Part shown: positions 1-16,758 of the stretch, piece by piece
How the letters are laid out: each line of letters starts with the position of its first letter
How positions within the stretch are numbered: the stretch's first letter is position 1
Source: Scenedesmus sp. PABB004
Taxonomy: Eukaryota
NCBI GenBank assembly: GCA_014905635.1
Contig: JABVCE010000002.1
Coordinates: 2,294,001 to 2,358,000, forward strand
DNA: 64,000 nucleotides
Direction of reading: 5' to 3'
Made by a program: the position numbers and the translations under genes
The notes under the pieces: generated by a model
What the model was told of the DNA's origin: nothing
Seen by the model: the letters and a program-made list of their open reading frames with translations, nothing else
The model's database searches: none

Positions 1-2906
1 GCGGCCCTCGTCGGTCACCGCGGCGAGCACGGTGGAGCTGAACGGCGCCCACGCGACGTCGCCGACCGCGGCGCCGAGGTCAAAGCTCAGCAGCGGCGCG
101 CGCGCCTGCGCGACGTCCCACACCTGCGCCGCGGCGCGGCGCGCGGGCGCGCGGGCGCGGCCGGCACGCTCGGTCGCCGCCGCACACGGGCCCGCCCGCC
201 GGGCTGCGCGCGCCCGCCCGCATGCACTGCCTCCTGCACGCGCTGCCTCCCCGCGCTACCTCCCCGCGCCGCGCCGCGCCTTGACGCTCCAGTCGGCGCT
301 GCACGACGCGAAGAGCCCCGGGTGCAGGCCGTTCCAGCGCACCGCGTAGACCGGCATCGCATGCCCCGCGTAGCTCGCGGCGTAGTCGCTGCCGTAGGCC
401 TTGGAGCACGCGTGGATGGCGCCCTCCTCGGTGCCGACCAGGTACGACTGCTCCCGCCCCGCCGCCGGGCAAAAGTCCATGCACAGCCCGCCCACGACGT
501 GCTGCGCCGCGGCCGGCTCGGCGCCTGCGCCGCCGACGCACCCGTCGGCGCCCGCCGCGCTGGCAGCGCCTGCCGCCGCGGCCGCCGGCGCCGGCGCGAC
601 GGGCGCGGCACCGCCGCTGCTGGACAGCGCCGCGACCGCGGCGACGCCGCCGCCCGCAGCGCGGTCCTTGGTGCTGGACTGCAGCCGCATCAGGCGCTCC
701 GGCAGCAGCTCGCACTTGGCGAGCGTCCAGAGCGTCACGTCGCCGTCGCTGGAGATGGAGGCAAAGGCCAGCGTCTTCTGCAGCTCGTCCGGCTGCCGGC
801 GTGGCGCGGCGCGCGGACGGGCGGCGGCGGCGCGCCCGCGCGTCGGCCAGCCGGCTGGGCGTGCGGGCGGACGCCGCTGCGCGCGCAGACAGAGCCGACG
901 GGCCCCGCCCCGACCGCCGCACCTGCCAGACGACCTGCCACACGGGATCGGAGTGCTTGCGCCCCGTGGCCGCCGTCGTCGCGAGCGGCGCGTCGCCCCG
1001 GGCGCGCACGTCGTACACGGCGACGCTGCCGTCGTAGCACCCCACCGCGAGCAGGTTGGCAAAGGTGGGGTGGAAGTGCAGCGCCATCACGCCTGCGCGC
1101 ACCGCGCCCATCCGCGGGGTCAGAGAGGGCGCGGTCAGCGCGGCGCAGCACGGTCAGAGCGCCCCGCCGGCCGCCGCGCCGCGCACCCGACGGCGTGGCG
1201 ATGGTGCGCTCCGCGTGGGAGGGGTTTTTGAGGCTGAAGACGCTCACCGCGCCGCCGCCCTGGCGCTGAAAGTTGAAGCTGCCGTACGCCGCCGCAAACT
1301 GGTCCGCGTAGCCGCTGCTCCACGCGAGCGCGGTGACGTGCTTGCGCCCGCGCTCGCACCGGAACTGCCACAGCGGCAGCAGCGAGCCCTCGCCCGGCCT
1401 GGCGCGGTCGGCGGCGCGCGGCGCGGCCGCGGGCGGCGGTCGGCCCGCCGCCGCCGCCGCCGCCCGCCGCCGCTGCGGCCGCAGCGCGCGCGCCAGCGGC
1501 GCGCGGCGGCTGCCGCCGCCGGCCCGCCCGCCCGCGCCGCCCCGCCCGTTTGCTGTGCGGCGGCGCACTTGAGCGCGTCCGAGGTGTCCTCCCAGTACTT
1601 GTAGTCGAGCGCCACGTCAGCAAAGGTGTTTTGGTTGACCATGCGGTCCAGGATGCGCAGCCCGTCGAGCAGCCCCGGCGCGCGCGCCCACGCGTCGCCG
1701 CCCGCCGCGGCGGCAGCGGCTGCAGCGCTGCCGCACGCGAGCGCGCCGCCGCTGCAGCTGGTGCCGGCACCGGCGCCGCCGCCGCCGCCGCCAGCCGCCG
1801 CGCCGGGCGCCGCGCCGCCGCCGGGCGCGGGCTTCTTGCCCGCGGCGCGCTGCTTGGCGGCCTCGTCGGCGCGCTGGCGCTCAAAGTCCCGCACGTACTC
1901 GTCAAACATCTCACGCATCGAACATGAGCCTGGGCACGCGCCGGGCGGCGGCGGGGGCGGCGGCGGGGGCTGTCGGCGCCCGGCGGCGCCCGCGGCGGCG
2001 CCCGGGGCGCAGCGCGACTGCGCAGCCGGCGCATGCGCGGCGCGCGCGGACGCACCCGACGCGGTCGCGGTGGGCGGCGGCTCGGTGAGCGTCGCGCGGT
2101 CGCGCGGCGGGTAGACCGCGGTCTGCGCCGCGCGGTCGCTGAAGTTGAACTGATTGCGCAGCGCGCGGCCGTCGGCGGGCGCCGGCTCGGGCGCGGCGCC
2201 GTCGGGCGCCGCGCCGTCGCGCTCGCGTGCGACGCGCTCGGCCGCGGCGCGTGCGTCGGCCTCGGCGCGCTCCGCCTCGAGCTGGCGGCGGGCCTCCTCG
2301 CTGCCTCGGTGCAGCAGCCAGCCGTCGCAGCCAAAGTGCAGCACCGTCTGCTCCACCATGGGCTCGAACTTCCAGGCCCGCTCCTTGGTGTTGAAGCGGG
2401 CCACGTTCTGGGGCGCGACCGGGTTGTTGGCCGACAGCAGGCGCGGCACCTCCTCGGCCAGCGCCGCGTCGCTCAGCGAGAGCTGGTTGGCGGGCCGCAC
2501 GACCTCGCGCGCCGGCTGGCGGCGCGCGCGGCACGCGCGCGGCGGCGCGGGAGTGTGGGTGGGCCGGCGCGGGCGGCGCGGGAGTGTGGGCCGGCGCGGG
2601 CGCGCGCGGGCGGCGCGGCGCCGCGATGCTGGCGGCGAGCAGCCTGCGAGGCCGCACCAGCGCAAACTCGGCCAGCGCCGGCGGCTCCGGCGAGGCCGGC
2701 GGCAGCTTGTCCTTGCCGGCGGCGCCCTTGCGTGCCTGCGCGTCGCGGTGCGGCGCAGCGCAGCGCACGTGAGCCGCAAGCAGTGGCGGGTGTCGCGCCG
2801 GCTCGCCGCCGTGCCGGGGCCCCGCAGCGGCCGCGCGCCGGCGTGCGCGCGCCTTGGCGCCTGCTCCATCCTCCTTGCGCTTGAACAGTCCCGAAAACGG
2901 CGGCAT
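1..2906 (-). CDS. DNAI1: Outer-arm dynein intermediate chain IC78/IC1 (WD40), multi-exon, 3' end runs off the window
   Basis: Joined exons give MPPFSGLFKRK..., LRNQFNFSDRAAQT, ILDRMVNQNTFADVALDYKYWEDTSD, GSLLPLWQF, FAAAYGSFNF, FSLKNPSHAE, GVMALHFHP..LLAVGCYDGSVAVYD, KHSDPVWQVVW and YLVGTEEGAIHACSKAY. These are DNAI1-family motifs. Confidence 0.9.
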
Positions 2907-6173: not shown

Positions 6174-8328
6174 TCACTGCGCCGCGCGGGCGGCGCCCAG
6201 CACGCCGAGCGCCTCCAGCGCCTCGCAGACTGGCGCGGCGACACGGCGGCGCGGCGGCGTGAGGCGCGGCGGCGCGCGAGGCGCGGCGGCGCGCGGGGCG
6301 CGGCCTCGGCTGCCACGGCCCCCCAGACTCACCCGAAAACGCGTCCAGACAGAACGGGTACGCCAGCACCAGCGCCTCTGCGAGCTGCCGCCTGTCCAGG
6401 ATGTTCACGACGCTGATGAGCTGCGCGCCGCGGGCGGGGCAGGGCGGCGGAGCAGGTCGAGCAAGGCGGGGCGAGGGAGCGAGCCGCGCCAGCCGCGCCC
6501 GCTTCGAGCCCCCTGGCGCGCCCCCCGACGCGCGCGCAGCCGCCGCGCGGCGCCCGCGGCGCCGTGGCGCGCGCACCAGGCAGACGTGCTGCAGCTTGAG
6601 CGCGCCCGTGGCGCGGTCGAGGCGGCGCTCGAGCGAGAGCTGCCGGCCCCCCGACACTGGCAGCAGCTCCTCCGCCCGCACCGCGGGCGGCACCGCGTCG
6701 CCCGGCGCGGTGAGGGAGTTGTGACTGAAGGAGTTGTGGCTGCTCACCACGGCCAGGCCGTCGCTGCTGGCGGCCGGCGCCGACGCGCACCCTGACCGCA
6801 GCGGGGAGGCCTGCGCGGCGCCGTCGGCCGCCAGCTCTGCGCACGCGTGGGCAGGCGCCATGCCGGGCTCCTGCTTCACGGCCACGGCGCCCGCCGGCGG
6901 GCAGGCCCCCGCCGCACCGCCGGGCGCCGCCGCATTGCACGCCAGGTCGTCAGCGAGCGCTGTGAGCGCCGCAACAAGCGCGCGCGTGCCGCCGGCCGCC
7001 GCGCGCGCGCCCGCCGCGGTGCCGCGGCGGCCCGAGCTCGCCGCGAGCAGCTCCGCTGCCAGCGCGCTGGCCTGGCGCTCCAGCTCGGCCTCGACCGCCG
7101 GCGGCTCCGCGGGCGGCGGCGCCGGCGAGCGCGGCGCGCAGGCCGGCGCCGCGTCCGGCGGGCCCGTCGCCGCGCTCGGCGGCGGCAGCAGCGCCAGGCG
7201 GTCCGCTGCGATGGCAAAGCGGCGCACGCGCGCCATCTCGGGCCCACGCACCGCCGCCAGCGCCGCGGCGGTGGCCTGGTGCTGCGCCTCGAGCGCGGCG
7301 GCGCGCGCCCGCACGTGCGCCCACGCCACGTCGAGGGCTGCCGCCTGCTCTCCGCTGAGGGACGCCGCGAGCGCCTGCGCCACGTGGTGCCAGAAAGCGT
7401 CGGGGTACGGCTCAAACTGGCCCGTCTGGCGGCGGCGGCGGCAGCGTGTCAGCGCGGCGGCGGCGCGCGAGCGCGGCCGCGGCGGGCGTGCGCGGCGCGG
7501 CGCGGCGCACCTCCAAGTTCGTCACCAGCGTGCTCAGCATGCGCGCCGGCGGGTCGAGCAGGCCGCACACCAGCAGCCGCTCCACGAGGCCGTCCACGAC
7601 GACGTGCAGCTGCTCCGCCGCGGGGCCGGCTGACGTCGCGGCCGCGGCGTTGTATTGCGGGAGCAGCACGCCCAGGCGCATCACCGCCGCGCGGTGCTGC
7701 GCCAGGCGGGCGGCCTTGTCGAGTGCGAGGTGGCCCGCGGCGCGGCCGGGGTCGGCCGTCGCGGCGCTGAGCAGCCGGCTCGAGTACAGCGCCGCGTACG
7801 CGTCGCCGCCGCCGTCCACGCCCAGCTCGCGCAGCGCGTCCTGCACCTGCGCCTCCTTGGCCGCGACGCGCGCGAGCAGCGCGCCGCCACAGCTGCCGCC
7901 GCGCGCCGCGTCGGCGGCCGAGGCCGCGGCGGTCGCAAAGCTGCCCGACGACGCTGCTGAGTTGGACGACGCGCTGGCCGCGCCGCCGCCGCCGCCGCTG
8001 CTCGCGCCCGCGAGGACCGCGAGCTCCGCGCGCAGCGCGCCCTCGCGCCCGCCGATCGCCGCTGACAGCGCGCGCTCGCGCGCGGCCAGCTCGCCGTTCT
8101 CCTGCTGCAGGAAGTCGAGCTGCCGCAGCCTGGCGCCGATCGTGGCCTGCAGCCCCGCGACCGAGCGCCTGCGGCGGCGGCGCGTGAGCAGGGTGGGGGC
8201 GCGGGCGGCGGGCGGCCCGGGCGGGCCGCCCGGGCGGCCGGCGCTGCTCGCGCGTGCGTCCGCTGCGCGCGCGTCCGGTGCGCAACACCCCACGCCGCTC
8301 ACGAGTAGAAGTTGCCGTGTTGGCTCAT
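6174..8328 (-). CDS. Uncharacterised protein with N-terminal leucine-zipper-like coiled coil (paralogue B of tandem pair)
   Basis: Exon 1 MSQHGNFYS, then an intron, then RSVAGLQATIGARLRQLDFLQQENGELAARERAL. Later LVERLLVCGLLDPPARMLSTLVTNLE|TGQFEPYPDAFWHHVA. Ends ILDRRQLAEALVLAYPFCLDAFS|VCEALEALGVLGAARAAQ*. Confidence 0.8.
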
Positions 8329-8577
8329 TTGCTTCTGAGGCCGGGCCTCTCGCGCGCCGGCCGGGACGGCGATGCGATGAACGCGCCGCTCGCCCTCTGC
8401 CCGCCCACAGGTTTCGCGCGGCCCCGCCGCTGCGCACGCGCCGAGGCCGCGGCGAGCTCTCTATCCCGAAAACACAGGCGGGATGAAACGGCGAGGCTAC
8501 CAGTGTCGAGCCGGCTTTTTTGATTGCCGGGGCTGCCCTGCCTCCCGGGCCAGCGATTGCTCCGCCCCTGCGCTGAA

Positions 8578-11500
8578 TCAGTCCTGGCGGCGCACGGCAT
8601 CGACCCTGAGCGGGGGGGGGGGCGAGCGGTTCTCCGGCGGTTCTCCGGCGCCGTGCACCGCGCACCGACGCGCGCCCGCTCACGCGCCCCCGGCTGCCGC
8701 CGCGAGCAGCCGCGCCGCCGCCTCGCCCGCCAGCAGCGCGGCGGCGCCGTTGTCGGCGGCCGCCGCGTCGCGCAGCGCGCGCAGCGCCGCGCCGCGCTCG
8801 GCCGCGAGCGCGCCGCCGCCGGCGGGGCCGCCCAGCAGCGCGGTCAGGCGCAGCGCGCCGAGCGCGGGCTCCCAGTCGCCGTCGCGCGCGGCCGCGGCCG
8901 CGAGGTCCAGGCAGCGCGCCGTGGCGCCGGGCGGCGCCTTGCGCGCCGCGGCCGCGACGAGCGCGCCGAGCACGGGCGGCAGCGCGAGCCGCGCGCCGGC
9001 GGCGGGCGCCGCCCCCTGCGTGCGCGCCTTGCCGGTGGCGGCGGCGCCGCCGCGGACGGGCACCGGCGCCGCGTTGGGGTTGACGTTCTCTGCGCGGCGG
9101 CGGGCGGAGGCGGCGGTGAGCAGCCGCGCCTGCGCGGCGCCCGCCGCCCGGCGCCGCGTGCCACACCTGCGTCGTCGTCGTCGCTGCCGGCGTCCTCGCT
9201 GCCGCCCGACGACGCAGCGGCGCCGTCGTCCTCCTCCGCCCGGGCCGCAGCAGCGGCCAGCGGCGCGAGCCAGTCGTCCGCGCCGCCGGCGGCCCCGTCG
9301 ACGAGCGCCGCGGCCAGCGCGGCCGCGTCGCCGCACACCGCCGCGCCCGCGGGCGCGAGGGGCCCCGCCGTCAGCGCCTCGGTCCACTGCAGCAGCCAGG
9401 CCCTGAGTGCAGGCGCCGCCGCCGTCGCCGCCGTCGCCGCCGGCGGCGTGAGCAGTGTGCGCAGCAGCTGCGTGTTGAGCGCGACCGCGCCTGGGGGCGG
9501 CGGGTGGTGTGGCGGGCGTTTCGCAGCGGGTGGGGGCGCTGGCGGCGGCACTGCGCGCCGCGCCACGCCGCGCGGCGCGGGCAGCCGCGCGGCGGCTCAC
9601 CCCTCGCGTCGTCGCTCAGCGGCGCGTCGCCGCCGGCCGCCGCCGCGGCGCCGCGCACGCCCGCGAGCAGGCTGGCGCCGCACTCTGCGGTCGCCGCGGT
9701 CGCCGCGCCGAGCGCGGGTGCGAGCTCGCCCGCGAGCTGGCTGCAGGCGGCCAGGGTCTTGAGCGCCGCCCACACGTCCCTCAGCAGGCCGTGGACCTGC
9801 AGCACCGCGCCCAGCACCTGGGCGCCCAGCTCGCCCGCCCAGGCGTCGGCGGGCAGCGACCGCAGCGCGGCGCAGCCTGCCGCCAGCTGCTGCAGCACCG
9901 CGACAGCGCCTGCGGCGGGCGGGTCGGGCGGGGCTGGGCTCCGGCAGGCCGCGCCGCGCGCTGCGCGCCGCTCGCCGTGCGCTGCACGCCGCGCCGCGCG
10001 ACCCCCCCCCTTCCCTGCCCGCTCGCGCGCGCACCTTGCGCCAGCGCCCCGGGCGCCTGCTCCGCAGCCTGCGCGAGCAGGTGCACGCCGCCGCGCGCCG
10101 CCAGTACGCCGGTCGCGAGCGCCTCGAGCGCGCGGCCCGCGACGCGGCCGCCGGTGCCCGGCCGCGCCGCCGCCGCGGCCGCCGCGCCGCGCAGCAGCGG
10201 CAGCATGCGCGGCAGCGCGCCGCTGCGCGACAGCGCGCCGCGCCCGCTGTCGCTCATGAGGAGCAGACCGACCGCGGCGAGCGCGGCCTCGCGCGGCAGC
10301 GCGCACGCGCGCACGTCGTCGGCGCAGCCGGGGCAGAACCAGTCGCCCTCTGGCACCGCGCCGAGGGGCGGGTCGAGGCAGTCGGTGTGGTGCCCGCGGT
10401 CGCAGCCGTCGCAGAGCAGCATGCTCGCCTCGGGCTCCGCCTGCCCGCACGCGGCGCACGTGACGTCGTCGACGGCGCCGGCGCCCGCGCAGGCGGCGTC
10501 GGCGCCGCAGCCCGGCGGCGGCGCCGCCGACGTGGCGGCGCTGTCGTGCCCCGGCCAGGCCAGGCCGAGCGCGGCGCAGAGCATCGCTGCGAGCTTGGGC
10601 CCCGTGCCGCCCGCCGCGAGGCACGCGAGCACCGCCGCCGCGTCGGCGGCGGTCGCCGCCTCGGGCGCGCCCGGCGCCGCGCTGGCGGCGAGCCAGGCCG
10701 CCGCGCCGTCGGTCACCGCCGGCGGCAGCAGCTCGCCGCTCGCGAGCAGCGCCATGCGGCTGGCCAGGAGCTGCCGCGCCGCCGGGAGGCACGGCAGCGC
10801 CTCGGCGATGCGCCACACGCAGCGCTCGCCCGCCGCGCTGGGGCAGGCGGCCAGCAGCTGCTGCAGGGCGGTGGCGGAAAACATGCCCTGCACGTCGCCC
10901 ACCTCGCCTGTGGCGGCGCGGGGGGCCGCGCGGTCAGAGACGCCGGCGGTGCGCGGCGGTGCGCGGCGCGGCGGCAGGGCGGCGGCGGCCACACGCACAG
11001 AGCTCGTGGAGCACCGCCATGCCGATGCCGGCGCACAGCTCCGCCAGGCCCCCGAGCAGCGCGAGCCAGCTGCCGGGCGTCTCCTCCTGCGCGCCGATCG
11101 CCACCACGTCCACCTCGCCCTCGCCCTCGGCCTGGCCCTCGGCCGGCGGCCCGCCGCCCGCACTGGGGCCGGCGCCGCCGGGCGCCTTCTTGCGCTTGCC
11201 GCCGCGACCGCCGCGCGGCGCGGGCTCGGGTCCGTCCGCGGGTCCGTCCGCGGGTCCGCCGTCGCCGGGGCGCCGGCTGCGCGCCTGCTTGCGTGGCGGG
11301 CTGCGGGGGTCGTCGACCGGCGCGTGGCTCAGCAGGTGGGTCATGAGGCACGACGCGAGCGACAGGATGTCTTCGAGCGGCACCTGCACCTGGTGCGGGC
11401 CTGCGGCGCGGCGCCAGGGCCGGCCGGCGGCGGCGCGTCGGGGGCGGCGGCGCGTGTCGCCGTCGCCGGCGGCGGCGGCAGGGCGCTGCGCCCGCCGCGC

Positions 11501-14500
11501 CCCGACCGGACCCGGCCGCCGAGCGCGACGCCGCAGCCGCCTGGCCGCGGCGCACCCTTGCCGCCGTCCATGTATCGGAGGTAGGGCGCGACCAGGAGGC
11601 GGCAGAACGAGCGCCCCGCGCCCGGCGTCTCCTTGAGCAGCGCCGCGACGCGCGCCTGGCGGCGCGAGGGGCGCGGGGCGCGGCGCGGCGCGGTCGGCCG
11701 CCGCGGGCGGCGCGGCGCGCGCGCAGTGACCGGCCGGCTGTCCGGCAGGCGGGCGCGCCCCGCGCGGCGCCCCGCGCGGCGCGCCGCACCGCGCCCTCCT
11801 CGCGGTTCGGGAAGACGCTGGGCACGAGCAGGCGGTGCAGCTTCTGGCCCACGCCGCCAAACCCGGCGCCGCCGCCGGCCGCGAGCGCCTCGAGCAGCGC
11901 CTCGTTGGGCACCACGTCCCAGAAGTGAAGCGCGCGGCTCGTGCTGCGCGGCGGCGCGGCGCGGTGCGCTGCGTTTCGGCGCGCGCGGCGTGCGCCGGGA
12001 CGCGCGCGGCCGCGGCGCGCGCGCGCGGTGCGCTCACGAGACGCAGAGCAGCAGGTCGGCCATCGCCTCGCGCACGCGCGGCGAGGCGTCCCAGATCATC
12101 GGCGCGAGCGCGGGCAGCGCTTTCTGCGCAGCAGCGGCCGGCACGCGGGGGGAGGGGGACGAGGCGCGTGAGCGCGCGCCGCCGCCGCGCGGCCCAGCCG
12201 CGGCGGCGGCGGCCGCCACGCGCCTTGAGCACCGGCTGCGCGTGCGCGTTGTCCACCAGGGCCTGGAGCCCCTGCAGCACCGCGGCGCGCACGGCCGGCG
12301 ACGCGCCGTCAAACGCGAGCGAGTCTGCGGGCACGGCGCGGCGCGGCGGGGGCGGGGGCGGGGGCGGGGGCGGGGGTCGGCTCGCCGCCGCCTGCTGCCC
12401 ACGCACCGCCACGCACAGTCACACACGCACGCACGCACGCTCACACGTCACGCACGCGCACGCGCGCACACACGCCGCGCACGCACTCGTGAGGCGGGTC
12501 ACGTAGATCGCGGCGGTGGCGGGGGGAATGATCTCCCAATAGAGGTTCAGCACGTCACAGATGCCGGCGGCGGCGACCGCGCGCACGCCGGGCGCGGGGT
12601 CGCTGAGGCCGGCGGAGAGCGCATCAAACTGGGACTGGAGCGTGTCGTCCTGCTCCTGCACGCTCCACTCGGGGTCCTGAGCGGCGCGCGGGGGCCGGGG
12701 CGCGCTCGGCCGCCGGCGCGCCAGGGCGCCGGGCCGGCTGGCGGCGACGGCGCAGCGCGGGGAGCGGCGCAAGCCGCGCCGCGCCGCGCCGCGCCGCGCC
12801 GCGCGCACCAGCACGGGGAAGGCGTCGCAGAGCAGCTGCAGCGAGTTGCGCCGCACGCACGCGTTGGCCGCGGCGAGGCCGCGGAAGAGCAGCGGTCCGT
12901 ACAGGCGCGCGAGCATGCCATCGACGCAGCCGGGCCCGCCGAGGCGCTTCGACGAGTGCAGCGCGCCCAGCACGCGGCGGATGTTGGCGACGAGGCCCTG
13001 CCCCGCGCCGTGGATCGCCGCGGAGATGAGGTTCTGTGCCCCGGACGCAGCGCGGGCGGCGCGGGCGGCGGTCAGCGCGGGCGCGGCGCGCATCTTCGGC
13101 ACGGGGCTGCAAGCCCCCCTCCCCCCTCCTCGGCGCCCACGCGCGCTCCCACGCACGCACGCACGCCCCCCCCCCCCCCCGCAGCCGCGCACCTGGATGA
13201 GGCCGGACTCAATCTCTGCCAGGCACGGCCCCGCCGCGTCGCGCCAGCCCCGCAGGATGACCTCGCCGTACGCGTCCAGCACGCTGCGCCGCCCCGCGGG
13301 GATCTGCGGCGCGCGCGCGCATGCGCGGGCGCGGCGCCGCGGGTCGGCCGGCGGCGGCGCCGGGCGGCGCGCCGCGCGGCGCGGCGCGCGCGGGCCCGGC
13401 CGCGGCGTGCGCGTGCGCCGCGCCTGGTTGCGGATGACGCTCGCCATCTCGGCCACCATGCTCGGGTGGACCGTGAGCAGCGCGGCGAGGAACTTGCGGC
13501 CGTCGGGGCGCGACACAAACGCGGGGCAGATCGCCGCCTGCGGCGCGGCGCGCAACGCGGTGCGGTGTGCCGTTGCGGCGCGTCCAGACGGGGCCCGTGA
13601 GTCAGGCCCCTCACCAACGCCCCCCCCCCTCCCGCCCTCCCCCCGCACGCGCGCGCCGCACCTGCAGCAGCATGCGTTTCGTGTCGTTGATCGATGCGTC
13701 CTCAAAGTCCAGCAGCTCCAGCGCGCCGCGCATCGCGTAGCACGCCTTGACGTGCGCCGCCTTTTGCGTCGAGATCGCGCGCAGCTGCGCGGCCGCCGCC
13801 GGCGCCGCGGGCGGCGGCCGGCCGTGTGAGCAGCGGCTGACCGGGCGCGCGCGCGCACGCCGTGGCGCTGCTGCCAGCCCCGCGCGGCGGCCGCGGCGGC
13901 GGCGCACCAGCAGGTAGGGCAGGGCCTGTGAGACCAGGAACTCCCGGTTCTCTGCCCCCGCCGCCCACCAGGCGCAGCAGAGCTTCACGACCGCGTCCTG
14001 CACGTCCGGCCGCGCGTCGCCGAGCTCCTGCGGCGGCGGGCGGCCGTGGGCGCCGCGCCGCGCTGCGCGCGCGCCTGCGGGCGCTGCCGCCCGCGCTGCG
14101 GCCGCCCGCGCTGCCGCCGCCGCCGCGCACCAGCAGCGCGTGGTCGTGCAGCTGGATCGCCGCCGTCATCAGGCCGTCGGGCGGGCTGGCCGCGCACTCG
14201 GCGAGCGCCTCGGCCGCGAGCAGCGCCGCCAGGCGCAGCGCGCTCAGCGCCGCCGCGAGCTCGGCGCTGCGCCCGTCGGCGCCGCCCAGCTCCTCGCCCT
14301 CCTCCGGCATCGCGTCCGCCAGCGTCGCCAGCGCCGCGTCGACCTGCGCGCCGGGCACGCGCGCGTCCCGCCGCGTGCGCGTCGGCCGCCGCCGTGGGCG
14401 CCCTGCGCCGCGGCTGGCCGGCGCCGCGGCGGACCCTGCCCTCCCACAATCTTTTAGCACCACCACCGCCACACCTGCGTGTGCAGTCCCTCGCAGAACG

Positions 14501-14716
14501 CCACGAGGCCGGCGCGCGTCGCGCTCTGCAGCTTGTCCTTCAGGTCGGCGGCGTCCTGCGCGGCGCGCGGCGTGCGGCCCCGTGGCGTTGGGGCCGCGCC
14601 GTGCATGCGCTGCGTCGGCGGTCCCGGCGCCTGGGGCCGCGCGCGCGGCGCACGTATTTGGCCCAGGCGGCCAGGAAGGCCGCCGTGTCGAGCGTCGCCA
14701 GCGCCTGCAGGTCCAT
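8578..14716 (-). CDS. NCAPG2: Condensin II HEAT-repeat subunit CAP-G2 with an internal PHD finger
   Basis: Exons give LCCAWW..REFLVSQALPYLL, ALELLDFEDASI, DGRKFLA, YGEVILRGW, LARLYGPLLFRGLAAANACVRRNS..LCDAFP, QFDAL..L.DP.PGVR..A..GICDVLNLYWEIIP, LAFDGASPAVRAAV and WDASPRVREAMADLL, all CAP-G2-like. 3' exons and stop are less certain. Confidence 0.88.
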
Positions 14717-15103
14717 GGCGCCACCGCCGGCTGCCAGGGCTTCGCGCAGTGGCTACAGCGATACCCTAGAGGCGCATGGCACGGCGCCCGCGGCGTGCGG
14801 GACAGCAGGGCGGCCGCAGGAGCCCAGCAATCTTTCGTTGTTGGCCAGGCCCGACGATGGAGCCCCCGGTCGGCGGGCGACGCGTGCGTCAAGGCCGTGG
14901 CGCGAGCGAGCGACGGGAATGCACGGTCGCTGCAGGCGCGCAGCGGCGGCGGTTTGAAGGCGCGGCGGTTGAGGGCTCAGCTGTCGTGCGGCGCCGGCGG
15001 CGTACGTGCTCGCCGAGCTCAGTCCATAAGTTTCACCGGCCAGGGGCAGCAGCGGCCGCTGCAGCAGCCCCTGCCGCGCCGACCGCGTCGCCGCTGCCGC
15101 GCC

Positions 15104-15868
15104 TCACCTTCCGACCGCTGCCGCCTCGCCCGCCTGCTGCTGCTCCGCCGCCGCCGCGGCCGGCAGCGGCGCGTGCGCGGACACAAACCCCACCACGGCG
15201 TCGCACAGCTCCGCGCACACGGCGGCGCTCGCGCGGAAGTTGTGGTCGCCGCCCGGCACGACCACGAGCTCCGACGGCCCGCCCAGCGCGGCCGCGATCG
15301 CGCGCCCGTCTTCCACTGGGATGACCGCGTCGGCGTCGCCGTGGACGGTGAGCACGCGCGCGGTCACCGCCGCCGCCGCGGCGCGCACGTCAGTGCCGAC
15401 GCGCTGCTCGAGGTCCTGCAGCGGCGGCGGCGCAAGCTCAGCTCAGCGGGCGTTGCACGGCGCCGCCGCCTGGTGCCCCCGGCCAGCGCGCGCGCGCTCG
15501 CCTCGGCGGTCAGCTCCCACGTGAAGCGGTGGCCGTCGTCGCGCTGCACCGACACGGCCACCGGCCCGCGCCGCACGCGCTCAAAGATGTATGCGCCGAA
15601 GCGCTCCTGTGCCGCCGCCGTGCGGCGGTCGTCGGCGCGGGCGCCTGCCGCGCGTGCCCGCGCCGCGCGCGCGCGCGCGGCCGCGCCTTGAGCCCCCGCT
15701 CCATGCGCCAGCGGCCCGCCGCGTTGATGATGAGCGGGACGGTGCAGTCGCGCGACGCCGCATAGAGCAGCACCGACGTCGCGCCCTTGCTGTGGCCTGC
15801 CGCGCGAGCGCCCGGCGGCGGCGGGTGCGGCGGCGTTGGGGCGCGGCCGGTCGCAGCGACAGGGCACG

Positions 15869-15900
<32 letters not shown>

Positions 15901-16362
15901 CCCGCCCGCCCGTCCCCGCGGCGCCGCACCCAGCACCGCGACCACGGCCGCGCGCTCGTGGCGCGTGAGGTGCTCCACCGCCGCAGCCACGTCGCGCGCC
16001 TCGTCCGCGTAGTTGGCAAAGCGGAAGGGCCCCTCGCTTTCGCCGTTGCCGGAAAAGTCAAAGCGCAAGCTGTCGTAGCCTGCGGCGCGGCGGCGGCGCC
16101 GCGGGCGTGGCTCGGCGCCGCTGGCCGCCGGCGCGAGCGAGCTCGGCGCACCCGCGTCGCTGAGCGCCTGCGCCAGCGCCGGGAGCTGGAAGCCGTCCTT
16201 AAAGCTAGCGTAGCCGTGGCAGAGCACGACCGTCGGGCGCGCGCCGCTCTCGCTGTCGGCGCCGGCGCCCGCGGCGCGCTGGAGCAGGCCGACGAGGCGG
16301 TGGCCGGCGGCGTTGCGGAAGGCGACCTTGCTGACGGTGCTCGCGCGCTCTGCCTGCGCCAT
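15104..16362 (-). CDS. Alpha/beta-hydrolase (serine esterase/peptidase-like)
   Basis: VVLCHGYAS, LRFDFSGNGESEGPF, nucleophile elbow G|HSKG, VLTVHGDADAVIP and GGDHNF give a Ser-Asp-His triad. An alternative upstream ATG lies at 16446. Confidence 0.9.
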
Positions 16363-16758
16363 GAGGACCAGCGAGCGCCTGCCGCGCCGGCGCAGCCTGC
16401 ACGCGCTGCGCTGCTGCTGCGGGCGCTGCTGGCGCCGCTGCAGCATCCAGCGCCCGCCGCGCGCGCTACTGACACGCTGAGCCGGCTTGGGAACTCGACG
16501 CGCCACAGGCCGCGGGCGGAGCGCTCCTGCAGCTGCCGCGCCGCGGTCGCCGCCGCTGCTGCTGCTGCCGCGCGTACGCTGCAGCGCGAGGGCGCAGCTC
16601 GGAGAGCCTCGAAGCGCGGGTGGGTGTTGCCTGATTGCGACCAGCGCCCTGACCCGCAACAAGCGCCGCGCCCGCGGGGCTTGCTGCCAAGCCCCGCGCC
16701 GCCGAGCCCCGCGCGCCGCCCGGCGGCCTTCCGGCTGCGAGCACACAGCGCGCGCCGC

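Follow-up and report, generated by a model that had tools for sequence, protein, structure and literature searches.

A conserved PHD finger with features of an H3K4me0 reader lies within the condensin II subunit CAP-G2 of a chlorophycean green alga

It is an open question how condensin II selects its sites on chromatin and stays bound to them. In animals, its siting depends on debated contacts between HEAT repeats and histone marks and on separate adaptors. Targeting and anchoring of the vertebrate complex run through its non-SMC subunits, with CAP-G2 acting both as an anchor and as a docking platform (PMC5479651, PMC9704520, bioRxiv 10.64898/2026.02.02.703380); NCAPG2 has been reported to form the DNA anchor, which is augmented by a basic loop of M18BP1 (bioRxiv 10.64898/2026.02.02.703380). 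The algal CAP-G2 described here resembles this system, but whereas vertebrates target the complex through the HEAT repeats themselves or through separate proteins (M18BP1, MCPH1), the algal subunit carries a putative reader module of canonical type in cis.

A second close parallel is plant PDS5C, a cohesin HEAT regulator whose Tudor domain is described as reading H3K4me1 (bioRxiv 10.1101/2022.05.28.493846, 10.1101/2025.05.08.652912). Both proteins are HEAT accessory subunits of SMC complexes with an acquired, dedicated histone-reader domain, a putative one in the algal protein. In contrast to PDS5C, with its cohesin partner, Tudor domain and H3K4me1 ligand, our case involves condensin II, a PHD finger and, as predicted, H3K4me0. 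The words "PHD" and "condensin" do not occur in one of these preprints (bioRxiv 10.1101/2025.05.08.652912), and our literature searches found no paper discussing a CAP-G2 with a PHD finger. Automatically generated database entries already show the architecture itself.

The CAP-G2 gene and the site of the insertion

The window, by which we mean the whole stretch of 64,000 nucleotides analyzed, has a G+C content of 75-83%, and all six of its reading frames are open for hundreds of codons. A gene model built manually on its minus strand (Table 1) identifies, by homology, the CAP-G2 (HEAT-B) subunit of condensin II from a very GC-rich chlorophycean green alga. According to a script check, the model starts at ATG 14716-14714, has TGA 8682-8680 as its sole in-frame stop and contains 17 introns of 77-162 nt (15 GT-AG and 2 GC-AG). 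GC at the three codon positions of the coding sequence is 0.81/0.59/0.96. The least certain boundary is the end of exon 10, which uses a GC donor and has an in-frame GT alternative at 12233.

The 1,332-residue product aligns with a 1,377-residue Scenedesmus CAP-G2 (P0002) in a single BLASTP HSP (1-1325 versus 1-1372, 57.6% identity), and P0002 has the same architecture of PF12422 plus PF00628. With P0002 as a tblastn query, matches are collinear from 14346 to 8704, and P0002 itself, in the part corresponding to exons 1-9, matches human NCAPG2 (9f5w_G) over about 440 residues (101-545 versus 116-555; E 8e-64). PF12422 (Condensin2nSMC) was found in the open reading frame at 12422-13984(-) with E 6.6e-31 (107.8 bits, cut-off 27); in this domain and in its predicted helical repeat build the protein is like canonical CAP-G2/NCAPG2 (9f5w_G; land-plant and trebouxiophyte orthologues such as P0014 and P0022), and in a tree of the N-terminal part it clusters with named CAP-G2. 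In exons 16-18, both P0002 and the transcript-derived P0003 remain collinear by tblastn down to 8695-8704, and these exons match a profile of PHD-less CAP-G2 weakly (E 0.0013, probability 18). As a CAP-G2, the protein would be expected to assemble into a condensin II complex with SMC2/SMC4, CAP-H2, and CAP-D3. GC content drops upstream of the ATG (0.73-0.75 at 14650-15100) and again past the stop, in what is probably 3' UTR and intergenic DNA; within the gene, it also falls to 0.68-0.75 in two places, 12400-12620 and 13600-13820. Over 9550-11500 it stays at 0.77-0.87, and the surroundings of the PHD exon show no drop of the gene-end kind.

Table 1. Features of the CAP-G2 locus, with positions in the window
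Feature	Position	Strand	Details
CAP-G2 coding span	8680..14716	-	18 exons, CDS 3999 nt, 1332 aa; manual model, script-checked
Exons 1-9, N-terminal HEAT region with Condensin2nSMC	12487..14716	-	PF12422 match plus exon chain/translation
Exons 1-5	14716-14654, 14555-14475, 14343-14131, 14027-13908, 13784-13662	-	manual model
Exons 6-9	13537-13424, 13303-13193, 13033-12809, 12676-12487	-	manual model
Exons 10-13	12324-12224, 12123-12038, 11943-11790, 11655-11556	-	manual model, span 11556..12324
Exon 14	10999..11400	-	aa 561-695 (codon 695: first base); CAP-G2 block ...PLEDILSLASCLMTHLL...KRKK...ETPGSWLALLGGLAELCAGIG...HEL
Intron 14	10908..10998	-	91 nt, gtgcgt...cacag, phase 1; predicted from sequence
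Exon 15	10035..10907	-	873 nt, aa 695-985/986; linker and PHD finger between two CAP-G2 blocks
Pre-PHD part of exon 15	10462..10905	-	aa 696-843, 148 aa; helices, motifs LQQLLAACP...ERCVWRIAEALP and VLACLAAGGTGPKLAAMLCAALG
Linker before finger, Ala/Gly/Pro-rich, low confidence	10471..10536	-	aa 819-840; pLDDT <50 (exon residues 124-145)
Asp-Asp before C1	10465..10470	-	aa 841-842; D841 aligned with KDM5B D308 (phmmer, 2mny)
PHD finger core, C1-C8	10324..10458	-	aa 845-889, 45 codons; PF00628 match
Post-PHD part of exon 15	10035..10323	-	aa 890-985, 96 aa; helices ...ALPREAALAAVGLLLMSDSGRGALSRSGALPRMLPLL...
Exons 16-18, C-terminal helical region and acidic patch, ends TGA	9909-9601, 9490-9167, 9089-8680	-	manual model, span 8680..9909
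Lower-GC stretch past stop	8300..8650	-	GC 0.69-0.74 versus 0.81-0.89 in gene; probably 3' UTR and intergenic DNA

A preceding sequence-only reading had proposed that this CAP-G2 carries a PHD finger, and had argued so from a reading frame that continues past the CAP-G2 exons without a stop. That argument has no weight in DNA where six frames are open, and the frame of exon 14, left unspliced, would in fact end at TGA 10936-10934. The proposal itself stands on other grounds, namely, the homology of the exon 15 flanks to PHD-less CAP-G2 and the collinearity of the 18-exon model with P0002, and the exon limits that had been guessed (10037-10907) agree with ours to within two nucleotides. Exon 15 lies between an acceptor cacag|GC and a donor AAG|gtgcgc and has a GC3 of 0.976 in the frame used; the predicted intron 14 splits the codon of Cys695 (T|GC) and keeps the frame.

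The flanks were compared as profiles, with queries built from the window and 12 chlorophycean rows and a target built from 19 PHD-less CAP-G2. The exon 14 segment aligned with target columns 566-648 (probability 95.4, E 1.7e-8; reversed control E 0.28), the pre-PHD part of exon 15 with columns 659-752 (probability 89.7, E 1.9e-6; reversed control E 0.12) and the post-PHD part with columns 779-857 (probability 78.5, E 1.7e-5; reversed control E 0.49), the last improving to probability 96.2 and E 2.7e-9 when P0028 was added to the query profile. All four reversed profile-profile controls fell at E 0.12-0.81. Single-sequence hhalign of the window segments against the same PHD-less profile was collinear but weak (E 4.7e-5, 3.3e-4, and 0.038), and our conclusion on the flanks is based on the profile versions.

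In a 22-row alignment, the finger is confined to the PHD rows and bounded by shared blocks, those before it being seen also in the Coccomyxa, Nannochloris, and Symbiochloris rows. The C-terminal blocks on either side are like those of PHD-less green-algal CAP-G2; at the site between them these algae show only a brief basic stretch as linker (GKRRKFEKH), whereas the window has a linker of about 30 residues and the 45-residue finger. The flexible linker preceding the finger differs in sequence and length between homologues. Since the flanks of exon 15 are homologous to contiguous parts of PHD-less CAP-G2, the finger is, on these alignments, an insertion in a loop between helical repeats in the C-terminal half of CAP-G2, whatever the splicing. 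A PHD finger belonging to a neighboring gene is ruled out by the homology of the exon's own flanks.

In an AlphaFold2 model of the exon 15 translation (mean pLDDT 84.4, pTM 0.83), residues 2-112 are predicted to be helical, with pLDDT of about 90 and a repeat build. Its similarity to karyopherins, Ycg1, STAG1, and Scc3 (Z 6.2-7.9) is under the tool's meaningful level for helical repeats. Foldseek with the whole exon model returned 0 matches at E <=0.001, the rows listed being PHD fingers at E of about 0.01-0.1.

The PHD finger and its subclass

The C4HC3 peptide quoted in the sequence-only reading is present on the minus strand as written, and the coordinates given for it, 10324..10458, run from C1 (codon 10458-10456) to C8 (codon 10326-10324). 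Its zinc ligands are C845, C848, C860, C863, H868, C871, C886, and C889, spaced C-x2-C-x11-C-x2-C-x4-H-x2-C-x14-C-x2-C. PF00628 matches residues 291-335 of the open reading frame at 9784-11328(-) (positions 10458-10324) with E 6.9e-12 (45.6 bits, cut-off 24), and the profile is covered in full (positions 1-47 of 47). All eight ligands are invariant across 15 sequences, as are L858, L859, D861, P880, and W884. A chance Cys/His pattern is ruled out by the E-values together with ligand invariance.

When a 60-residue stretch was searched against solved structures with phmmer, the six closest relatives were the PHD fingers of ATXR5 (E 4.2e-16), KDM5A PHD1 (E 5.1e-16), Lid, KDM5B PHD1, BAZ2A, and BAZ2B. 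The finger aligns with H3K4me0 PHD fingers (5vab, 7klo, 2mny, 2miq, 4q6f, 4qf3) at E 4e-16 to 8e-15, free of gaps over about 50 residues, and no H3K4me3 reader appears among the best 60 solved relatives. It is predicted to adopt the cross-braced PHD fold, with pLDDT of at least 90 throughout. The predicted finger superposes on the H3-bound ATXR5 PHD with Z 7.9 and rmsd 1.7 Å over 54/54 residues, and Foldseek gave a TMt of 0.84-0.86 against ATXR5 and against BAZ2A bound to unmodified H3; across ATXR5, KDM5A/KDM5B/Lid PHD1, and BAZ2A/B, the predicted model shares the fold at rmsd 1.2-1.7 Å. Whereas the PHD fingers of ATXR5, KDM5, and BAZ2 reside in histone-modifying or remodeling enzymes, that of the window sits in a HEAT subunit of an SMC motor.

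KDM5B PHD1 has been described as binding H3K4me0 through D308, Y310, E321, L324-L326, D328, P347, G349, and W351, with D308 hydrogen-bonding the unmethylated K4 amine (PMC4225485), and the ATXR5 PHD likewise selects unmethylated K4 (PMC5499861). The residues of the window finger at these 10 contact positions are D, V, E, M, L, L, D, P, G, and W, 8 of them identical and the other 2 changed (Y310 to V and L324 to M). The identical ones include P880, G882, W884, D861, and E854, which correspond to P347, G349, W351, D328, and E321 of the A1 pocket and the R2/T3 contacts. The acidic residue that had been pointed out before the first Cys is D841, the counterpart of KDM5B D308. Four positions before C1, 9 of the 10 PHD-bearing alignment rows shown have Asp and 1 has Glu; in P0028, Asp falls there only when a gap of one column is included in the count, and the residue is V when it is left out.

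The absence of an aromatic cage, also claimed earlier, is confirmed: the adjacent W884 and F885 (in GDWFC) are the sole aromatic residues in aa 845-889, and no cage can therefore form. In the canonical aromatic cage, the Trp precedes the His ligand by two residues, a place taken by Gly866 in the window finger. The cage Trp residues of BPTF, ING2, and TAF3 are named in PMC4225485. Taken together, this homology suggests that the finger may read unmodified H3, or H3K4me0.

Proposed role and alternative readings

We consider it quite probable that the locus is one gene, a CAP-G2 with an inherited PHD insertion, and that its finger would bind the N terminus of H3 unmethylated at K4, the binding part being predicted from the homology above. 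The extreme H3 N terminus would be held with the A1 amine in a pocket of P880, G882, and W884, with R2 contacting D861, T3 contacting E854, and the K4 amine contacting D841, while residues 857-859 would pair with the tail as a β-strand. Because CAP-G2 is the anchor-side subunit, such a finger would supply condensin II with a built-in grip on nucleosomes, and hence on chromatin, lacking H3K4 methylation, and it may keep the complex off H3K4me3-marked promoters.

The most serious competing explanation accepts the PHD as a true part of CAP-G2 but gives it another ligand, an N-terminal or internal H3-like motif of some other protein, or makes it a zinc-stabilized structural plug on the solenoid. 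The predicted model of the exon would suit a plug, as its pTM of 0.83 covers the whole exon and the finger is placed confidently against helices rather than floating. Vertebrate CAP-G2 is also a docking platform for regulators, such as MCPH1 (PMC9704520), M18BP1, and the NCAPD3 tail (bioRxiv 10.64898/2026.02.02.703380), and PHD fingers that bind H3-mimicking nonhistone peptides are on record (PMC8166343, PMC9898751). We nevertheless judge it unlikely, as the residues shared with KDM5B PHD1 include those for the A1 pocket, R2, and K4, and throughout the clade these sites either do not vary or stay acidic, as would suit a ligand that is itself universal and conserved, for instance the H3 tail. 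That the finger instead recognizes an H3 tail bearing methylation (such as H3K4me3) or another modification seems to us the least probable reading of all. Association of condensin II with H3K4me3, via the HEAT repeats of NCAPD3, and with H4K20me1 has been reported in mammals (PMC5479651), a precedent for mark-dependent targeting of this complex, but the window finger has no aromatics beyond the W884 and F885 of its A1 pocket motif, has Gly866 where a cage would have Trp, and has only solved relatives of other kinds among its best 60.

Nearly as improbable is a pair of transcription units, in which CAP-G2 would end in or just after exon 14, exons 15-18 would be a separate gene or internally initiated, and the database fusions would be prediction artifacts. 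In favor of such a split, P0003 (a 708-residue transcriptome ORF called complete) consists of 53 unrelated residues followed by a match that begins at the exon 15 acceptor and runs as far as the stop, a pattern also expected from an internal start, and exon 14, if unspliced, runs into the stop mentioned above. However, the end of the P0003 N-terminal stretch (..AAG) would result from translating an intron with the end gcagcag together with the first GC of the exon, suggesting that this odd N terminus may be a retained intron. In single-gene PHD-less CAP-G2, moreover, the homologues of the exon 15 flanks directly follow that of exon 14 (columns 566-648, 659-752, and 779-857), and in the window the two exons are separated by only 91 nt with canonical gtgcgt...cag ends and a preserved frame. 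GC across their junction is 0.77-0.81, with no fall to the 0.69-0.75 of the gene ends, and where exon 15 has its first in-frame ATG (10880), 8 of 9 other PHD rows covering the position carry L, A, V, or F, with M only in P0010. Even if there were two units, the PHD would still lie within the C-terminal half of CAP-G2.

Returning to the single gene with an H3K4me0-type finger, a conserved reader in CAP-G2 would amount to a natural experiment, in which a point mutation in one domain should split chromatin reading from loop extrusion. Volvocine algae and Scenedesmaceae are culturable and in part transformable. Beside the PDS5C Tudor domain, the CAP-G2 PHD finger would be a second case of an SMC-complex HEAT subunit gaining a reader domain, which suggests that such gains may be a recurring evolutionary route. 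More speculatively, core chlorophyte condensin II may have its own chromatin receptor, with an H3K4me0 PHD on CAP-G2 gripping the H3 tail, stabilizing loop anchors on nucleosomal fiber free of H3K4 methylation and keeping them out of active promoters; the insertion would be older than the divergence of Chlorophyceae from Chlorella-type trebouxiophytes, and repeated losses would have left a basic patch at the same loop. We regard this wider scenario as possible but doubtful. If it is true, the PHD in CAP-G2 would do in cis what vertebrates leave to independent proteins that bind CAP-G2, M18BP1 among them.

Distribution among relatives

Among 42 CAP-G2 homologues, 13 combine Condensin2nSMC with a PHD finger, the architecture for which the sequence-only reading had proposed a search across algae; they come from chlorophycean algae, with one Chlorella model, and PHD-bearing relatives include volvocine algae and Scenedesmaceae. 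PF00628 is absent from the other 29, which include every land plant and mammal and several trebouxiophytes, in agreement with the earlier statement that canonical CAP-G2 is built of HEAT repeats only. The window protein is unlike this canonical form, which has no reader domain. In the tree made from the N-terminal part alone, 13 of 14 PHD rows fall in one clade (SH-aLRT 99). This clade also holds P0009, a 969-residue gene model with no finger, and the single PHD-bearing case outside the chlorophycean clade is P0028 (Chlorella sp. A99). The full-length PHD-bearing relatives are all gene predictions, some probably from similar pipelines. That the insertion is common to the sampled chlorophycean CAP-G2 indicates, from sequence comparison, that it is inherited and under selection and not an annotation accident.

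A word-based protein search for Chlorella-type relatives of P0028 returned only P0028 itself and P0013, and a metagenome scan for relatives' loci with P0004 gave 622 pattern-matched stretches, mostly from low-complexity patterns, of which 0 were confirmed. An exhaustive search of representative proteins with exon 15 as the query found 8,078 proteins at E <=0.001 and 18 at E <=1e-30. Its top matches are short fragments (193-460 residues) with the exon content in one stretch, and they speak to breadth, not architecture. Homologues of exon 15 cover 77-99% of the exon, and 3 of the 4 with at least 77% coverage carry both PF12422 and PF00628.

The PHD Finger and the CAP-G2 Gene Model

The C4HC3 pattern at 10458-10324, which the sequence-only reading had taken to be a PHD finger, is not a chance arrangement of residues. 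The Pfam PHD profile (PF00628) is covered in full at E 6.9e-12, with a score of 45.6 bits where 24 is the cut-off, and a search of the finger against all solved structures gave a best E of 4.2e-16. In minus-strand translation the first Cys codon starts at 10458 and the eighth ends at 10324, exactly the bounds originally assigned to the feature, and VDDVT directly precedes the first Cys. All eight zinc ligands are invariant in a 15-sequence alignment, as are L858, L859, D861, P880, and W884 (numbering of the window gene model). An AlphaFold2 model of exon 15, fed the same alignment (mean pLDDT 84.4, pTM 0.83), runs from helices through a 22-residue stretch of pLDDT <50 to the finger, with pLDDT of at least 90, and then to helices again. 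The predicted finger resembles the H3-bound PHD of ATXR5 (Z 7.9, rmsd 1.7 Å over 54/54 residues; TMt 0.86) and that of BAZ2A on unmodified H3 (TMt 0.84, rmsd 1.3 Å). Foldseek returned no match at E ≤0.001 for the whole exon 15 model, and solenoid matches (karyopherins, Ycg1, STAG1, and Scc3) reached Z 6.2-7.9, under the level that the tool states to be meaningful for repeats.

The gene model was read from the minus strand and then checked by script. Its 17 introns (77-162 nt; 15 GT-AG and 2 GC-AG) share the donor pattern G[T/C]G[C/A/T]G, and the exon 10 boundary is uncertain because an in-frame GT could serve as the donor instead. The predicted exon 14-15 splice restores a Cys codon (T|GC) and correctly connects two different reading frames. 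The model aligns with P0002, the 1377-aa Scenedesmus CAP-G2 from NCBI, in one BLASTP HSP (1-1325 versus 1-1372, 57.6% identity), and tblastn of P0002 on the window is collinear from 14346 to 8704. Within exon 14, a low-complexity stretch rich in Pro, Gly, and Arg contains the short direct repeat GPADGPADGPEP as well as a KRKK patch; this stretch differs in length between homologues. The upstream neighbor resembles a fragmented alpha/beta-hydrolase gene; the downstream neighbor, which has a coiled-coil-like exon (LRQLDFLQQENGELAARERAL...), begins about 500 nt past the CAP-G2 stop and gave no Pfam match.

Coordinates of the CAP-G2 gene and its surroundings, with profile matches of its segments
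Feature	Position	Strand	Details
CAP-G2 coding span	ATG 14716 to TGA 8682-8680	minus	18 exons, CDS 3999 nt, 1332 aa, single terminal stop
ORF with PF12422 (Condensin2nSMC)	12422-13984	minus	E 6.6e-31
GC-AG intron donors	13423-13422 and 12223-12222	minus	CAP-G2 model
Alternative exon 10 donor (GT)	12232-12231	minus	in frame
Exon 14 low-complexity stretch	11290-11130	minus	
Intron 14 (exon 14-15 junction)	10998-10908	minus	gtgcgt...cacag, phase 1
PHD exon (exon 15)	10907-10035	minus	GC3 0.976 in frame used
Upstream neighbor	15107-16758	minus	Abhydrolase_4 E 6.2e-6 in 15107-15442; weak Hydrolase_4 match in 15367-16758
Downstream neighbor	~8180-6200	minus	
Exon 14 segment vs PHD-less CAP-G2 profile	columns 566-648		probability 95.4, E 1.7e-8
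Exon 15 pre-PHD vs same profile	columns 659-752		probability 89.7, E 1.9e-6
Exon 15 post-PHD vs same profile	columns 779-857		probability 78.5, E 1.7e-5
Exons 16-18 vs same profile	columns 1045-1081		probability 18, E 0.0013

Membership of the PHD Exon in CAP-G2

The window has a G+C content of 75-83% in every 2-kb bin (1-64000), and each of the six frames has stop-free stretches 300-700 codons long. The lack of an intervening stop, by which the PHD exon had been joined to CAP-G2, is therefore no evidence here; gene membership had to be decided by homology, and on the homology of its flanks the exon does continue CAP-G2. In this genome the length of an ORF says nothing about whether it is coding, while codon-position GC (0.81/0.59/0.96 for the model) is informative. 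Without removal of the short intron that precedes the PHD exon, the frame of the upstream exon would run into TGA 10936-10934. G+C drops to 0.69-0.75 past both gene ends and is 0.77-0.87 around the PHD exon (9550-11500), but it also dips inside the gene (0.68-0.75 at 12400-12620 and 13600-13820), so that composition by itself does not delimit the gene.

In exon 15 the finger is flanked by 148 aa on its N-terminal side and by 96 aa on its C-terminal side. Query profiles built from the window model and 12 chlorophycean homologues, with the Chlorella sp. A99 gene model P0028 left out, were compared with a profile of 19 PHD-less CAP-G2 proteins (trebouxiophytes, land plants, mammals, and further rows), and both flanks found their counterparts there, as the table details. 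Reversed-sequence controls (n=4) gave E values of 0.12-0.81, profiles that included P0028 gave 2.3e-9, 4.5e-7, and 2.7e-9, and single-sequence window queries were collinear and weak. A 22-row alignment shows finger and linker in PHD rows only, between blocks that these rows share with Coccomyxa, Nannochloris, Symbiochloris, and land plants. Since the flanks are shared on both sides and the finger is present in PHD rows only, the finger is an insertion in a loop of the CAP-G2 C-terminal helical region, irrespective of splicing. In PHD-less green algae this site is occupied by a short basic linker, GKRRKFEKH, a patch that is conserved in the PHD-less proteins P0022, P0023, P0026, P0027, and P0030 and could be a nuclear-localization or DNA-contact element.

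That the PHD exon belongs to a separate gene is very unlikely, as its flanks on both sides of the finger are homologous to PHD-less CAP-G2 and collinear with exon 14. In favor of a separate gene, P0003, an ORF of 708 aa from an Enallax costatus transcriptome that carries the PHD but not PF12422, has 53 N-terminal residues that are unrelated to CAP-G2, and its match begins exactly at the exon 15 acceptor. This N-terminus could reflect a retained intron, since its final residues, AAG, would result from translation of ...gcagcag|GC, or else transcription that starts internally. In the reading frame of exon 15, however, the first ATG (10880) is not conserved, with M only in the PHD-bearing relative P0010 among the 9 other PHD rows covering the site. 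P0003 is the sole transcript-derived relative, and the full-length PHD-bearing relatives are all predicted proteins. We regard the observation of a PHD finger in CAP-G2 as confirmed and its interpretation as supported.

Relatives and Origin of the Insertion

With exon 15 as query, six proteins matched at E ≤0.001, four of them over 77-99% of the exon and the remaining two over the finger region alone. PF12422 and PF00628 occur together in three of these four (P0002, P0004, and P0005), the fourth being P0003. Both domains are also present in 13 of the 42 proteins matched by the P0002 N-terminal region at E ≤1e-10, including Scenedesmus, Tetradesmus obliquus, a MAG, Haematococcus, Pleodorina starrii, Volvox africanus, Astrephomene gubernaculifera, and Chlorella sp. 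A99. PF00628 is absent from the other 29, of which 9 are shorter than 1000 aa and possibly truncated; among the 20 of greater length are Coccomyxa, Nannochloris, Symbiochloris, four land plants, and mammals. The architecture is already visible in the automatic annotation of public proteins.

A quick IQ-TREE analysis (37 rows, 637 columns) was restricted to the N-terminal part because the insert must not sway the topology. Thirteen of the 14 PHD rows, including the window, whose nearest neighbors are Tetradesmus and Scenedesmus, form one clade (SH-aLRT 99). P0028 (1496 aa), with its PHD at 899-941 in the same CAP-G2 loop, is set apart and adjoins PHD-less Nannochloris-type rows (support 100). 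Two state changes are therefore needed on the tree, either as an old single gain with losses or as two gains at the same loop; no close relatives of P0028 were found by protein search. A Hariotina reticulata gene model (P0009, 969 aa) falls within the PHD clade without the finger and some 400 aa, going from the pre-finger block straight to the C-terminus, and the gap probably represents missed exons.

Candidate Ligand and Possible Role

The only aromatic side chains of the finger are W884 and F885, so that a methyl-lysine cage cannot form, in agreement with the original proposal. Among solved relatives the six top-scoring ones are ATXR5, KDM5A PHD1, Lid PHD1, KDM5B PHD1, BAZ2A, and BAZ2B; the best 60 also include CHD4, BHC80, DPF, MOZ/MORF, UHRF1, AIRE, KMT2C/D, PHF10, PHF12, ORC1b, and similar proteins, and BPTF, ING, and TAF3 are absent from these 60. 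The ATXR5 PHD is selective for unmethylated K4 (PMC5499861). KDM5B PHD1 contacts H3 through D308 (K4 amine), Y310, E321 (T3), L324-L326 (strand pairing), D328, and P347/G349/W351 (A1) (PMC4225485). The window counterparts of these ten residues are D841, V843, E854, M857, L858, L859, D861, P880, G882, and W884, 8/10 being identical in a gap-free alignment. Position -4 from the first Cys is Asp in 9/10 PHD rows shown in the 22-row alignment and Glu in one, the Chlorella row having Asp only with an alignment gap counted. We infer that the ligand would be an H3 tail with unmethylated K4, in line with the unmodified tail originally proposed, and the finger may alternatively bind a non-histone ligand or have a purely structural role.

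The loop extruded by human condensin II has its anchor side at NCAPG2, where M18BP1 reinforces it via an NCAPG2-bound basic loop (bioRxiv 10.64898/2026.02.02.703380), CAP-G2 is a docking site of MCPH1 too (PMC9704520), and mammalian condensin II is reported to recognize H4K20me1 and H3K4me3 via HEAT repeats (PMC5479651). An H3K4me0-reading finger tethered to CAP-G2 would allow the anchor subunit to grip nucleosomes without H3K4 methylation directly, and such a finger would disfavor active promoters. This CAP-G2 and PHD reading is directly testable. No description of a PHD finger within CAP-G2 was found in the full-text literature (the broadest topic by titles and abstracts of top-ranked matches), and plant PDS5C offers the nearest published analogue, its Tudor domain.
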